A stretch of DNA of 64,000 nucleotides from Clostridia bacterium. GTDB lineage: Bacteria > Bacillota > Clostridia > Oscillospirales > CAG-272. A program made the translations under genes and the position numbers. The DNA is taken from contig JAFWYJ010000009.1 of NCBI GenBank assembly GCA_017517745.1, positions 3,467 to 67,466 of the forward strand, in the 5' to 3' direction. Below the pieces are notes generated by a model, which was not told the origin of the DNA, did not search any database, and worked only from the letters and a program-made list of their open reading frames with translations. Below, piece by piece: positions 45,554-53,484 of this stretch; positions within the stretch are counted from its first letter, which is position 1, and every line of letters begins with the position of its first letter.

Positions 45554-45582
45554 AGGGGCTGTCAATTTGACAGCCCCTTTTC
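45554..45582. terminator. bidirectional terminator (LbH gene / pstB)
   Basis: AGGGGCTGTCAA / TTGACAGCCCCT palindrome followed by TTTTC. Confidence 0.65.
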
Positions 45583-46357
45583 AACCGAATTTTCCGGTGA
45601 TATAGCGTCGCGTTCGCTCGTCTCTCGGTGCTGAGAAGAGCTGTTTGGTGTCCCCGCATTCCACCAGTTCGCCCGACAGAAAGAACGCCGTTTTGTCCGA
45701 AATTCGTGCGGCTTGCCCGAGGTTGTGCGTGACCGTTACAATGGTCGTGGTTTTGCGCAATTCCAGACAAAGTTCCTCAATTTTTTCGGTGGAGATGGGA
45801 TCGAGAGCGGCGGTAGGCTCATCCATCAAGAGGATCGAGGGCTTGACGGCAAGCGCACGGGCGATGCAAATCCGTTGCTGCTGACCTCCCGAGAGACCGA
45901 GCGCCGAGCGGTTCAGCCGATCCGCGACCTCGTCCCAGATCGCCGCGCGGCGCAAAGAATCCTCCACGATCGCGTCAAGCTCCGCGCGTTTGCGGACACC
46001 GAAGGTACGAGGTCCGTAGGCGATATTGTCATAGATGCTCATGGGGAAGGGGTTCGGCTTTTGAAAAACCATTCCCACGCTTTTTCTCAGCGCGTTGACG
46101 TCGATCTTACCGTAGATCGAAACGCCGTCAATGAGAAATTCTCCCGAAACACGGCATTTTTCAACCATATCGTTCATGCGGTTGAAGCATTTGAGCAGAG
46201 TCGATTTTCCACATCCCGACGGGCCGATAAACGCCGTCAGCGTGCGCGACGGAAGATCGATGCAAATATCCTTCAGAGCATGAAACGCGCCGTACCAAAG
46301 ATCGGCGTGACGGACACGGATGCTTTGACCGAAATGGGGGATTTCACGTGCTTTCAT
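45581..46357 (-). CDS. pstB: phosphate ABC transporter ATP-binding protein
   Basis: Walker A is GPSGCGKST, the signature is LSGGQQQR, Walker B is ILLMDEP. ATGA start/stop overlap with the permease gene. Confidence 0.9.
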
Positions 46358-48147
46358 CGTGACCGCGCCTCCTTTCCTTTCGTGCTTTTTCGTTTCAGAT
46401 GTCCAATGACTGCGCGCGCAGAGAGATTGAGACTCAGCACCAACAGGATCAAAATCACCGCTGTGGCGTAGGCTTCTTCGATATGCCACCCCTCTCCCGC
46501 CAGCTGATAGAGCGCGACGGACAGCGTTGTGCCGCTGTCAAGATAGGAGCGCGGAATTGCCGTCATGACCGATCCCATGGTCCAGAGGAAGGGTGCCGAT
46601 TCTCCGATCACGCGTCCGATTGAAAGGATTACAGCAGAAAAAATGCCGGAGAGTGCCGACGGAAGAACCAATCGCAGAATCGTGCGCACCTTTCCCGCGC
46701 CCAAAGCCAGACTCCCCTCGCGCAACCCGTCGGGAACGGCAGCAAGGCTCTCTTCTGTGGTGCGCACCACGGTGGGGAGCAGCATCAGGCTGACGGTCAG
46801 AGAACCCGCCAACACCGAGGAGGAACCGCCAAAGAGCGGAAGAAAGGCAACTACGCCGAAAAGACCGTAGACGATCGAGGGGACGCCCGCGAGGGTGTCG
46901 ATCGCACTGCGGATCAAACGGACGGCAAGGCTGTTTTTTTTCGTATATTCATGCAGAAAGACCGCGGTCATCACGCCCAAAGGGATCGCGATTCCAAGAC
47001 TCAGAAGGACTGCCATCAGCGTGGCGATAAGGGAGGGCAAAAGCGTGATCTGCGCCCCGCCGAATTCATATTTTCCAAAGAGCAGATACCGCCGTGAAAG
47101 AAGCGGCGGCAGTCCTCGGAAGAGGATAAAACCGAGAAGAAGCAGAAGGATTGTACTGCAAAAAGCCGCGGAAAGCACCGAAAGCAACCTTCCCAGTGTC
47201 GGGGTGTGCGGCAGAAGTGCCTGTCTGACGATCGGCTTTCGTACAGAAGTTTTTTTGTTCTTTTCCCGAATGGCTTTTGAGGAGCGCAAAAGAAAAAGCA
47301 GATTGATGAGAAAAACGAAAAACAACAGTACCACACCGGTCGCAACGAGAGCCCCTTCATGCACCTCGCCCGCATATCCCATCTCCATGACGATGTTGGC
47401 AGTCAGTACGCGAAAGCTGTGAAAAAGTCCTTTGGGATAGGTCGGGGAATTTCCGGCAACCATCACGATCGCCATGGTCTCTCCGAGCGCACGACCGACG
47501 CCGAGAATGAGCGAGGCGGTGATGCCCGAGCGGGCAGCGGGGATCATGATGCGAAATACGGTTTCCGCGTGCGAACATCCAAGCGCACTTGAGGCATCAT
47601 AATAGCTCTGCGGGACCGATTCGAGCGCGGATTGAGACAGCGCCGTCACCGTGGGAAGAATCATGATCCCGAGAATGAGGGAGGCGGCGAGCAAGCCGCT
47701 TCCGTTGTTGGGGGAGACGAGGGAAAGGAGCGGTAACAGAAAGGAGATCCCAAAGAATCCGTAGACCACCGAAGGGATGCCTGCCAAGAGATGAATGACC
47801 GAAGCAAAGAGCCCTTGAAGCTTTTTCGGACAAAAAAAGGTGAGAAATACCGCTGTAAAATATCCCAAAATACCGCCGATCAAGAGTGCGCCCGCCGTGG
47901 CGGCAATCGTGCCGACGATCATGGTGAAGATGCCGTAATAGCCCGACAGCGGCGCGTCATAGGTGTCATATCGGCTTGGTGACCAGACGTCACCGAAAAC
48001 AAACTCCCAGACACCGATTTTTTGGAAGGCGGGAAAGCCCTTGAAAACGAGAAAAGCAAAGATCGCGATCACCGAGGCCGCGCAAAAGAGCGCCGCACCG
48101 CCAAAGATCAGTTTGCCCAAAAATTCCTTGACTCTTACCTTGTTCAT
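46354..48147 (-). CDS. fused phosphate ABC transporter permease PstC-PstA
   Basis: 597 aa. Two permease halves, each of about 6 TM helices, are joined by a basic linker ([23 protein letters not shown]). Each half carries an EAA-like loop ([19 protein letters not shown] and [19 protein letters not shown]). Confidence 0.8.
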
Positions 48148-49064
48148 GATTCCTTCGTTCCTTGTTCAATCGCGGAAAAATACTGTGTTTTACCGCAAAA
48201 AATATCGTAAAGCTCCGCAAGACTGAGATCACTCACCGCGAAATTCGAGGGATGCACCACCACCGCGATGGCATCGAGACAGAGAAGGTGGGCATTGATC
48301 CCATCGGCTTCCACTGCCACCGAGGAAAGCCCGATGACGTTTCCCGACGTATCGTTTTCCACTGCCTTTCGCCCGACCGACGAGCCTTCCAGTTGTACGT
48401 CAAAGAGATCGTCGGGATTGACGCCGTAACACTTGGCGTAATCTCTCGCGGCGGAGAGGATCAGCTTTTCCAGCGAGGTCGAACCGCGCAGAAGAATTTT
48501 CTCTCCTGAGGGAAGAGCGGAAAGCGGGGAAAAGGCGGGAAGAGCTGACTCGCCGCGACCGGGAAGGAAGCATCCCGCCGCCTCGACGTGTGATTTGACG
48601 CTGTCGCTTTGCAGATAGCGCAGAAAATCGGCGGCACGCGCTGAGAGCGGCAGTTTTTTGGTGGTCATGATCACGTAGGGGCGTTGCAACGGATAGGATC
48701 CGTCAAGAAGGGCGGCTTCGTTCGGGAACGCGCCGTTGATCGAGAGCATGCGTACGCTCTCATTGACCGAAGAGAGCGAAAGATAGCCGATGGCGTTTCG
48801 GTCAGACGCCACCGAGGTCAAAAGCGCGCCGTTTTTGGTTTGTACCACGGCACTCGCTGTCGTGTTGTGACGGATTCTGCCGTTTTCATCGGTTTCGGCG
48901 AGAAAATGAACGCCGTCGGTCACCATGCCGTCGAATGCCTCTCGCGTGCCGCTGCCGACCTCTCGCACCACAACCGTGATCTTCTTTTCAACGTGCGAGC
49001 AAGCGACAAAGGACACCAAAAGACAGACACAAAGAAGCAAAAGAATGGATTTGCCAAATTTCAT
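48144..49064 (-). CDS. pstS: PstS-family phosphate-binding lipoprotein with permuted motif order
   Basis: The lipobox is LVSFVAC. The PstS motifs occur in the order VVVREVGSGTREAF, NAIGYLSLS, Pro/Ser/Ala linker, RGSTS, EGSSVG, LAELYDIFCGK. Confidence 0.75.
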   Translation of the reverse strand: MKFGKSILLLLCVCLLVSFVACSHVEKKITVVVREVGSGTREAFDGMVTDGVHFLAETDENGRIRHNTTASAVVQTKNGALLTSVASDRNAIGYLSLSSVNESVRMLSINGAFPNEAALLDGSYPLQRPYVIMTTKKLPLSARAADFLRYLQSDSVKSHVEAAGCFLPGRGESALPAFSPLSALPSGEKILLRGSTSLEKLILSAARDYAKCYGVNPDDLFDVQLEGSSVGRKAVENDTSGNVIGLSSVAVEADGINAHLLCLDAIAVVVHPSNFAVSDLSLAELYDIFCGKTQYFSAIEQGTKES

Positions 49065-49170
49065 TTTTTGCCTCCTTGCGTCTTTTTTCTTATTTTGAGC
49101 CGCGCGATGCCGTTTTTATGTTTGTTTTTCCGCCTAACAAAAAATGTCTTTGTTTTTTCGACTTTCCTTG

Positions 49171-49199
49171 TTGACTTTTGAAAAAAAATGTGTTATAAT
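49171..49199 (+). promoter_or_regulatory. sigma-A promoter of the pfl operon
   Basis: TTGACT (49171-49176), 17-nt spacer, TATAAT (49194-49199), with TG two nt upstream of the -10. Confidence 0.65.
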
Positions 49200-49356: not shown

Positions 49357-51588
49357 ATGGAACACAAGAATTGGAACGGATTTCAACCCGGTGCTTGGCA
49401 GAACGAGATCAACGTGCGTGATTTCATTCAGACCAACTACCGCGAATACGTAGGAGACTCGGATTTCCTTGCAGGTGCGACCGCGCGCACCAACGCCATG
49501 ATGAAAAAACTGAACACGCTGTTCATGCTGGAGCAACAGTACGGCGGCGTGTTGGACATCGACACCGCCACGGTTTCCTCGCTGACGAGCTATTCGCCGG
49601 GATATATCGACAAGGAAAACGAGCTGATCGTGGGAATGCAGACCAACCGTCCGCTCAAGAGAGGCGTCAATCCCTTCGGCGGCATGCGCATGGTTCGACA
49701 GGCTTGCGAGGCGTACGGCTATCAGCTGAGTGACAAGGTGCAAGAGGAATTCCGCTTCCGCACCACGCACAATGACGGTGTGTTCCGCGCCTACACCGAC
49801 GAGATGCGCCTGGCAAGAAAATGCCACGTCATCACGGGACTTCCCGATGCCTACGGCAGAGGCCGCATCATCGGTGATTACCGCCGCGTGGCGCTCTACG
49901 GCGTCGACCGTCTGATCGCGGAGAAGAAAAAGGATAAGAAAGCACTTTCCGACTGCATTTTTGACGCAGATCACGTCAGACAGGACGAGGAGCTTTATCA
50001 GCAGATCACCTTCCTCGGTTACCTCAAGGAAATGGCGGAAATGTACGGTTTTGACATCTCCGAGCCTGCCAAGAACACCCAAGAGGCGATCCAATGGACC
50101 TATTTTGCCTATCTTGGCGCGATCAAGGAGCAAAACGGCGCGGCAATGTCGCTTGGACGCGTTGCCACCTTCTTTGATATTTACGTCGAGCGCGATCTTG
50201 AGAACGGCACGCTCACAGAGGAGGGTGCGCAAGAGCTGATCGACGATTTCGTCATGAAGCTTCGCATCGCACGCCATTTGCGCACACCGGAATATAACGA
50301 GCTTTTCGGCGGAGATCCCATGTGGATCACAGAGGCGGTCGGCGGCATGGGTGAGGACGGCAGAACGCTGGTCACCAAGTCGAGCTACCGTATTTTGAAC
50401 ACGCTCTACACCCTCGGATCGTCTCCCGAACCAAACCTCACCGTGCTCTGGTCAAACGCGCTGCCCAAGCCCTTCAAGCGCTTCTGTGCGAAGGTCTCGG
50501 CGGACACCGACTCGATCCAATATGAAAACGATGACGTCATGCGCCCGATCTACGGTGACGATTATGCCATCGCTTGCTGTGTTTCCGCCATGAAGATCGG
50601 CAAGCAGATGCAGTTTTTCGGTGCGCGTTGCAACCTCGCCAAGCTTTTGCTCATCGCCATCAACGGCGGCTACGATACCACCAGCGGCATCCACATCGGC
50701 CCGCAGATGTCGGTGTTGGAGGGGGACGCGCTCGACTTTGACACCGTCATGGCGCGCTATCAGATCTATATCGAGTGGCTCAGCCGTCTCTACGTCAACA
50801 CCATGAACGTCATCCATTATATGCACGATAAGTATGCCTATGAAAAGACGCAGATGGCACTCCATGACACCAACGTGGGAAGATTCATGGCATTCGGCAT
50901 CGCTGGACTTTCGGTGGTTGCCGATTCGCTCAGCGCGATCAAGTTCGCGAGCGTCCGTCCCATCAAGAACGAGAACGGATTTGTCACCGACTTTGAGACC
51001 GTGGGAGAGTTCCCGAAATTCGGAAACGACGACGACCGCGTTGACCTGATCGCCAAGGATATGACGCACCGCGTGATCACCGAGCTGCGCAAGACGCCCA
51101 CCTACCGCGGCGCGGAGCATACGCTTTCGGTCCTCACCATCACTTCCAACGTCATGTACGGCAAGCACACCGGAGCCACCCCCGACGGCAGAAAGGCGAC
51201 CGCACCCTTCGCGCCCGGCGCAAACCCCATGCACAATCGCGAGGAGAACGGCGCGCTGGCTTCCTTGAACTCGGTCGCCAAGCTCAGCTATGACGATTGC
51301 CGCGACGGCATTTCCAACACCTTCTCGATCACCCCCGAGGCACTCGGAAGAACCGAGGAGGCAAGAATCGACAACCTGGTCACGATCCTGGATGGCTATT
51401 TCGCCAAGAAGGCGCACCACATCAACGTCAACGTCCTCAATCGCGAAACGCTCAAAAAAGCATACGAAAATCCAGAGGCATATCCCAACCTCACCATTCG
51501 CGTGTCGGGTTACGCCGTGAATTTCCACAAGCTTTCCCGTGAGCAACAGCGTGAGGTCATCAGCCGCACCTTCCACGAAACGGTATGA
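49357..51588 (+). CDS. pflB: formate C-acetyltransferase (pyruvate formate-lyase)
   Basis: The glycyl-radical motif is RVSGYAVNF. The adjacent catalytic cysteines are in IACCVSAM. 743 aa. Confidence 0.95.
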
Positions 51589-52307
51589 CGGACACGGAAA
51601 GAAAGGGAAGGGTACATTCGATCCAAACCCTCGGCACGCTCGACGGACCGGGCGTCCGATTCGTGGTCTTTACCCAAGGATGCCCGCTTCGTTGCGGATG
51701 TTGCCACAATCCCGACACGTGGAAGACCGAGGGCGGCAGGGAATACCCCCCGCGTGAGCTTCTCGAGCGCGCACTGCGCTACCGTGAGTATTTCAGATCG
51801 GACGGCGGTGTGACGGTGTCGGGCGGAGAACCTCTTTTGCAAGCCGCGTTTGTGCGCGACTATTTCGCGCTTTGCCGCGAGGCGGGTTTGCACACCTGCC
51901 TGGATACCTCGGCCTGTATCCTCAACGATGAAGCGAAACATCTGCTCGAGGTCACCGATCGCGTCCTTTTGGACGTCAAATATACCGACGACGCAAGTTA
52001 CCGCGCCTACGTGGGCTGCTCCATCGACGCGCCGCTCGCGTTTCTCGGGTATCTGAACGAAAAAAAGATCCCCACGACTCTGCGGCAGGTCATCATTCCC
52101 ACGCTCAATGACAGCGAGGAGAATATCCGCGCGCTCAAAGCACTTGCCAACGCGCACAAATGCGTCGACGGCGTCGAGCTGTTGCCGTTCCGCAAGATCT
52201 GTCAGGTCAAATACGACAAAATGGGAAAAAGCTTCCGCTTTGCCGAGATCCCCGAGCCAACGGCAGAGAAGATGCAACGTCTGAACGCCGTTTTGAACGA
52301 GGCTTGA
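51585..52307 (+). CDS. pflA: pyruvate formate-lyase activating enzyme (radical SAM)
   Basis: [15 protein letters not shown] carries the CX3CX2C motif. ATGA overlap with the pflB stop. Confidence 0.9.
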
Positions 52308-52616: not shown

Positions 52617-53396
52617 TCAATACATTTTATATTTGAGCCTGAGATTATCCGCAATCATCGCAATAAACTCAGAGTTCGTGGGCTTTCCTCTGTTGTTCTG
52701 AATGGTGTATCCGAAATAAGAATTGAGGGTATCGACGTCGCCTCTGTCCCAGGCGACCTCGATGGCGTGGCGAATGGCACGCTCGACGCGACTGGTTGTG
52801 GTCTGATACTTCTTTGCCACGGAAGGGTAGAGGACTTTAGTGACGCTGTTGATCATATCGCTGTCGCGGATCGTCAGGAGAATTGCCGTGCGGAGGTACT
52901 GATATCCTTTGATGTGGGCGGGAACACCGATCTGATGGATGATTTGCGTCACTTGTGTTTCGATGTCGGGACCTTTTTCAAGCTGCATTGCAGCGGCGGG
53001 GATATCTGCTCGGCGGTGTGTGGCGATGCTTTGAATGTGTTCGCACAGGCTGTTGATGTTGACCGGCTTGAGCAAGCAAAGCTCCGCCCCCGCCTCTGTG
53101 GCTTGAATGAAGACGTTTTGATTGGATACCGAGGAGATCACGATGAAAGCGGGGGCTTTTTCATGTCCCCAATCCATCGAACGGCAGGTGCGCAACAATC
53201 CGATCCCGTCGATCTTGGAGAGCCACACGTCGAGCAGAACGATCTCCGGGCAGGTACGCGTGATTTTTGCCAACGCGTCCTCTCCGTTGGTCGCCTCTTC
53301 GACGTTACGATAGCCCGCGCGGGAGAGACCGTCGCGAAGGGCGGATCGGCTCATCGCGTTTTCGTCTGCGATCAAAATTTTCGTGGTGTATTCCAT
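52617..53396 (-). CDS. spo0A: sporulation master regulator Spo0A
   Basis: Receiver domain ILIADENAM...[14 protein letters not shown]. The Spo0A-specific C-terminus has [35 protein letters not shown] and [13 protein letters not shown]. Confidence 0.95.
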
Positions 53397-53440
53397 AGGT
53401 AAAAAACTCCTTCCAGATTTTTCCATTTTCTTACAGGAAT

Positions 53441-53484
53441 ATTTTACCATATTTTGAAATCTTTTGCAAGTGTTTTGTTCGAGA
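53441..53484 (-). promoter_or_regulatory. sigma-A-like spo0A promoter with upstream 0A-box-like site
   Basis: On the - strand: TCTCGAA (53484-53478, 6/7 match to TGTCGAA), TTGCAA (53469-53464), 17-nt spacer, TGgTAAAAT extended -10 (53446-53441). Confidence 0.45.

Follow-up and report, generated by a model that had tools for sequence, protein, structure and literature searches.

The stretch of DNA analysed here, referred to as the window, comprises 64,000 nucleotides (nt) of contig JAFWYJ010000009.1 (assembly GCA_017517745.1) from a Clostridia bacterium of the order Oscillospirales, and carries on its minus strand a pst operon in which a gene for a phosphate-binding lipoprotein, pstS, is followed by a fused pstC-pstA permease gene (pstCA) and then by pstB, all coupled via ATGA overlaps (Table 1). 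The stop codon of pstS and the start codon of pstCA share 4 nt, and a second ATGA, at 46354-46357, joins the pstCA stop to the pstB start. The product of pstS is very probably a natural circular permutant of the serine-type (S-type, TIGR02136-like) PstS proteins that serves a PstS-PstCA-PstB ATP-binding cassette (ABC) importer as its working receptor for phosphate, anchored by a lipid. Its N-terminus carries a predicted lipoprotein signal (MKFGKSILLLLCVCLLVSFVAC), in which Cys22 is invariant across 26 homologues and position -3 is Phe rather than Leu. Within the fused permease, TIGR02138 (PstC) covers amino acid residues (aa) 13-285 with 402 bits and TIGR00974 (PstA) aa 321-585 with 376 bits, both above their equivalog cut-offs.

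Table 1. Features of the pst operon, in window coordinates
Feature	Position	Strand	Evidence
pstS, circularly permuted, for a predicted phosphate-binding lipoprotein of 306 aa (stop codon included in the span)	48144..49064	-	Open reading frame and translation; PF12849 and TIGR02136 matches
Ribosome-binding site AAGGAGG, 6 nt 5' of the pstS ATG	49071..49077	-	Direct sequence reading
Signal peptide with lipobox (..VSFVAC, Cys22)	48999..49064	-	Hydrophobic helix aa 3-20 in the model
Module A (aa 26-165), canonical PstS C-terminal half	48570..48989	-	TIGR02136 positions 161-291, E 8.6e-21
Linker (aa 166-188), old C-terminus to old mature N-terminus	48501..48569	-	No secondary structure, confidence dip in the model, length variable among homologues
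Module B (aa 189-301), canonical PstS N-terminal half	48162..48500	-	TIGR02136 positions 40-157, E 4.1e-11
Fused pstC-pstA permease gene, 597 aa	46354..48147	-	TIGR02138 and TIGR00974 matches
pstB, ATPase of 258 aa counted from the Met at 46357	45581..46357	-	PF00005 ABC_tran, E 1.4e-29

The order of the conserved blocks was analysed with the NCBIfam PstS family profile TIGR02136 (ptsS_2, 295 positions) and the Pfam profile PF12849 (PBP_like_2). The canonical collinear order, in which GSTS, GSS and F.GK..W are followed by R..GSGT and AIGY, is not kept in the window PstS. TIGR02136 aligns instead as two exchanged pieces, with aa 26-164 corresponding to profile positions 161-291 and aa ~189-301 to positions 40-157, and the expect values (E) of the halves scanned separately, 8.6e-21 for the N-terminal half and 4.1e-11 for the C-terminal half, lie far beyond chance. 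When the two halves are rejoined in silico with the C-terminal half placed first, one collinear match spans profile positions 40-291 (E 9.1e-35). PF12849 is swapped in the same manner (aa 26-154 to positions 130-266, C-terminal half to positions 10-119) and reaches 67.6 bits, above its cut-off of 27, and a six-frame search of the genome gives the identical swapped order at the DNA level.

Module A, which now comes first in the chain, carries R34 and S38-G39-T40 (REVGSGT), AIGY and YPLQRP, while module B contains G-S195-T196-S197, G-S228-S, S248 and the LYDIFCGK helix. A preliminary description of this DNA had quoted the sequence of the same 306-aa open reading frame at 48144-49064 on the minus strand and had reported the 4-nt overlap with the permease gene, which is present in the sequence as ATGA. 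The motifs lie where that description placed them, except that LAELYDIFCGK occupies aa 282-292 and not 282-291. The linker that it drew at aa 167-189 (nt 48498-48566) is also real, being without secondary structure, variable in length among homologues and modelled with a predicted local distance difference test score (pLDDT) of 77-85.

The structure of the window PstS was modelled with AlphaFold2 on the basis of 26 homologues, giving a mean pLDDT of 90.6 and a predicted template-modelling score (pTM) of 0.82; residues ~165-189 have no secondary structure in this model, and there pLDDT falls to 77-85. A sequence search of the PDB returned one collinear match, 4H1X (E 3.9e-30, aa 28-296 of the window PstS aligned with residues 10-261 of the chain), whereas the canonical PstS structures 1TWY, 4GD5, 4Q8R and 4EXL each align to the window PstS as two swapped pieces. 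4H1X is likewise the best Foldseek match to the model (E 1.2e-25, target TM-score 0.89, root-mean-square deviation (rmsd) 2.5 Å over 275 columns). Against canonical PstS, Foldseek gives either a partial match of ~100 columns (1TWY) or a full-length sequential alignment with an rmsd of 9-10.7 Å (4GD5, 4PQJ), and such partial or poor sequential fits are the expected signature of a permutation. According to the model, the two-lobe class II (Venus-flytrap) binding-protein fold is retained. The succession of strands and helices puts the new chain ends at the site of a canonical loop of 4-5 residues, which links the F.GK..W helix to the I.VV.RE.GSGT strand. Because the chain ends occupy this former loop, the lipid tether would be attached to the lobe opposite the canonical one, and the placement of chain ends and tether on the other lobe would be the sole topological consequence of the permutation. 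The earlier proposal of a circularly permuted single PstS unit without duplication is borne out by the profiles, which match as two swapped and not collinear pieces, by the PDB comparisons and by the predicted fold, in which the two lobes of PstS are recovered with 4H1X as the closest structure.

Binding of phosphate by S-type proteins has been described for C. perfringens PBP-1, in which the ligands are Ser11, Thr12, Ser13, Ser41, Ser59, Arg125, Ser129, Gly130 and Thr131, with Ser59 standing in for the low-barrier-hydrogen-bond Asp of E. coli-type proteins (PMC5381212). Alignment to 4GD5 assigns S195, T196, S197, S228, S248, R34, S38, G39 and T40 as the equivalents in the window PstS; these nine residues are invariant in the 26-sequence alignment and conserved over 134 family rows in both module orders. 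As the nine ligands are kept, and as pneumococcal Pst2, with the 4H1X protein as receptor, is constitutively expressed and functions as a transporter of inorganic phosphate (PMC4913102), the window gene can be read as the working phosphate receptor of its operon, and its product would be expected from its sequence to bind phosphate. The chain opens immediately after the lipobox cysteine with the strand-loop bearing Arg and Ser-Gly-Thr, which canonically lies in the middle of the protein, and then runs to the old C-terminus and spans an unstructured linker of ~23 residues. What was the N-terminal half, with the GSTS and GSS loops and the Ser59-equivalent, comes next and ends at the site of the canonical loop of 4-5 residues. 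Phosphate would be clamped between the lobes and handed to PstCA as for any PstS, an expectation that follows from the retention of the fold and of the nine ligand residues.

The permuted arrangement is not confined to this genome. Searching 5.8 billion proteins brought up 464 homologues, and among the matches listed, those spanning most of the query are 50-73% identical to it and collinear over 90-100% of its length. In a scan of species-representative genomes, at least 80 loci match query residues ~1-300 in one piece, almost all of them in metagenome-assembled genomes of gut or rumen Clostridia (labelled Christensenellales, Oscillospiraceae, Candidatus Scatosoma and Eubacteriales), and the next open reading frame after pstS is a fused pstC-pstA of 590-650 aa in ~65 of 80 related loci. 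The fusion is itself present beside either PstS order, as in the related operons L083 and L084. Of 200 genomes drawn evenly from the same class, ~35 carried a collinear (permuted) match and about twice as many the canonical two-piece match. The window gene is an ordinary member of a widespread, little-discussed permuted PstS variant, and the survey of homologues shows the permuted order to be the standard layout of a large family, not a one-off. At NCBI, relatives (P0020 and P0101 among them) are named only 'substrate-binding domain-containing protein', likely because the swapped halves hold the TIGR02136 score (112 bits) under the 206.6-bit cut-off; the JGI name is phosphate transport system substrate-binding protein.

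The genome to which the window belongs is a draft of 2.17 Mb in 62 contigs, 97% complete, and it contains no other PstS, be it of the TIGR02136 type or of the TIGR00975 type known from E. coli. Continued use of the gene, previously argued from translational coupling, gains further support from this sole-PstS status, from the invariant ligand residues and from conservation across at least 80 species. No PhoU domain (PF01895) was found anywhere in this 97%-complete genome; the operon L083 of a relative has the composition pstS-pstCA-pstB-phoU.

Known systems resemble the window PstS to different degrees. 4H1X is PstS2 of S. pneumoniae TIGR4 (SP_2084), the binding protein of Pst2; it has the same permuted order and, like the predicted lipoprotein of the window, is a lipoprotein encoded at the head of a pst operon, yet the two share only 33% identity and the window operon, unlike Pst2 of S. 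pneumoniae, has a fused PstCA. The canonical S-type PBP-1 of C. perfringens (4Q8R / 4GD5) belongs to the same TIGR02136-type family and has the nine phosphate ligands in common with the window PstS, but its modules stand in the canonical order (B then A) and its sequential Foldseek fit to the window model is poor (rmsd 10.7 Å). E. coli PstS (D-type, TIGR00975) fills the same role, that of a two-lobe phosphate receptor in a PstSCAB importer; it is, however, Asp-type, canonical in order, longer and periplasmic rather than lipid-anchored, and its similarity to the window PstS is marginal (E 0.04).

The origin of the layout was approached with an exhaustive search that gave 2,325 matches at E <= 0.001, the best 150 representatives of 50%-identity clusters being classified by architecture with hidden Markov models of the two modules (A, aa 26-165; B, aa 186-300). 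Among these 150, the permuted A-B architecture is found in 93 and the canonical B-A in 34, and the tandem forms BABA (7), BABABA (1) and ABAB (2) make up 10. The tandem proteins (P0130, P0135, P0149, P0155, P0159, P0173, P0188, P0199, P0152 and P0193) are PstS lipoproteins of the same family as the window PstS, with 527-789 aa and two or three complete binding units where the window protein has a single one; the permuted order can be read across the junction between their units, and the linker found there is alike in length and character. Repeat units inside one tandem PstS are very alike (tree branch lengths of 0.02-0.2 for several), which suggests recent duplication or homogenisation. Linkers measure 13-34 aa between tandem units and a median of 30 aa in permutants, against ~5 aa at the canonical B-to-A junction. 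Within the clade of the window PstS, the linker of permuted proteins corresponds in alignment first to the tail that ends canonical-order relatives (..YVQQ...AYTK) and then to their mature N-terminal stretch (..GK|VVIRGSTS), and it contains no signal-peptide sequence. This composition, old tail followed by old mature N-terminus, matches the prediction of a tandem duplication with subsequent loss of outer half-units. The layout most likely arose in this way, the mature domain first being duplicated internally in tandem and both outer half-units then being lost. The duplication-then-truncation route named in the preliminary description is consistent with the existing tandem forms and with the make-up of the linker, although its individual steps are inferred. 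Apparent half-trimmed forms, ABA in P0142 and BAB in P0228, proved to be fragments of tandem proteins with the N-terminal part cut away and were not counted as intermediates.

To place the two orders relative to each other, the modules were put into a common order and a maximum-likelihood tree was calculated from 134 rows and 246 columns, a quick tree with many unresolved forks and an unknown root in which 4H1X is not a row. This tree needs at least 7 changes of order, 4 of them forced by well-supported branches, and a tree constrained to keep all permuted proteins together on a single side of a branch is worse by 201 log-likelihood units (approximately unbiased (AU) test, p = 2e-5), the permuted proteins not forming a single clade. 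The clade of the window PstS (Shimodaira-Hasegawa-like approximate likelihood ratio test (SH-aLRT) value 96) unites 22 permuted and 6 canonical-order proteins. The permuted P0146 and the canonical P0150 are 57-59% identical in both modules and each precedes a fused PstCA, and those two PstCA proteins are 53% identical to one another and 45% identical to that of the window, so the order would have changed inside one orthologous operon lineage. That module order changed more than once in the PstS family is moderately supported by these sequence comparisons. Since the clade of the window also holds canonical-order proteins, its permutation may be independent of that in 4H1X. On balance we lean towards a history in which PstS of the fused-PstCA lineage of Clostridia was permuted repeatedly, in one or both directions, via tandem intermediates, the window permutant being independent of the pneumococcal PstS2 (4H1X) type.

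Several observations weigh against the interpretation of the window protein as a working permuted PstS derived from a tandem precursor. Its TIGR02136 score is below the curated cut-off of 206.6 bits both in the native order (112.5 bits) and after re-permutation (120.3 bits), and this persistence below the cut-off marks it as part of a divergent subfamily. The model of duplication and truncation does not by itself explain the retained signal peptide, for which it has to be assumed that the first half-unit, following the signal peptide, was deleted in frame. In addition, the clade has lost a near-universal Arg after the Ser59-equivalent and gained one before GSTS. The gained Arg (RGSTS; aa 193, 48486-48488) is present in 22 of the 28 rows of the window clade, a position at which A, S, G, V or T predominate elsewhere, and Arg following the Ser59-equivalent ('SR'; aa 248-249, 48317-48322) occurs in none of these 28, whereas outside the clade it is seen in 61 of the 69 permuted rows and in 35 of the 37 canonical ones; 4H1X shows the reverse of the window clade, having the 'SR' pair and lacking an Arg ahead of GSTS. 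Both positions are independent of module order, the signature being common to permuted and canonical-order members of the clade but not to 4H1X-like sequences, and the relocation of the arginine is possibly compensatory. A protein that kept its fold while its specificity moved to another oxyanion (arsenate, phosphite, phosphonate or sulfate), or that took up a sensing role in place of phosphate import, would fit this exchange of arginines, the poorer anion discrimination of S-type PstS (PMC5381212) and the lack of a detected PhoU gene in the genome. Such a shift is nevertheless very improbable, given that all nine direct phosphate ligands are conserved, that the partner genes are PstC, PstA and PstB at equivalog level and that the genome has no other PstS to serve the transporter.

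The tandem origin itself competes with other routes to the same order, such as a split of pstS into two genes that later fused the other way round, or recombination involving neighbouring pstS paralogues. Neighbouring pstS copies do occur (two in genome G129), and true half-trimmed intermediates were not found among the classified proteins; on the other side, multi-domain tandem forms that carry just one signal peptide are frequent in this family, their inter-unit linker matches that of the permutants in length and make-up, and no split pairs of half-size pstS genes were seen among the matches, in which single-module proteins look like contig-end fragments. We therefore regard these routes as unlikely in comparison with derivation from a tandem duplicate. 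A swapped order produced by misassembly or rearrangement, or a gene in decay, might be suspected in a draft of 62 contigs, but the identical order is shared by hundreds of independent assemblies, by 80 species-level genomes and by one crystallised protein, and the window gene has an intact frame, invariant ligand residues, a good ribosome-binding site and the position of sole PstS of its genome. Conservation and sole-copy status rule out both explanations, which are effectively refuted.

In the surroundings of the operon, the segments 49357-52307 (plus strand) and 52617-53450 (minus strand), divergent from pstS, hold a pyruvate formate-lyase-like gene (743 aa) and an activating-enzyme-like gene (240 aa), beyond which lies a Spo0A-like response regulator, all identified by sequence motifs alone. 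A strong promoter-like site is located at 49171-49199, and a scan for promoters and terminators gave nothing useful on the minus strand 5' of pstS. The gene next to pstB in the window is convergent with it.

The permuted PstS layout is known, in the sense that a structure has been public since 2012 and the arrangement is widespread, but apparently undescribed. A full-text literature search with subscription journals outside its coverage found a PstS permutation described nowhere, nor for 4H1X / SP_2084, and the papers on pneumococcal Pst1 and Pst2, SAR11 PstS, C. perfringens PBP-1 (PMC5381212), Synechocystis SphX and bilobed scaffolds do not mention one. For the genome of the window, the finding means a correct annotation, that of the organism's only phosphate receptor rather than of a generic 'substrate-binding domain-containing protein'. 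For protein evolution, it provides tandem precursors and both module orders among orthologues that are 57-59% identical. Binding proteins are routinely permuted artificially in biosensor engineering, and natural permutants of a well-studied binding-protein fold are useful both to that field and to work on protein evolution. If the repeated permutation is true, PstS would be a rare natural system for comparing, across closely related orthologues, several independent permutations of a single fold and the tandem precursors of these.

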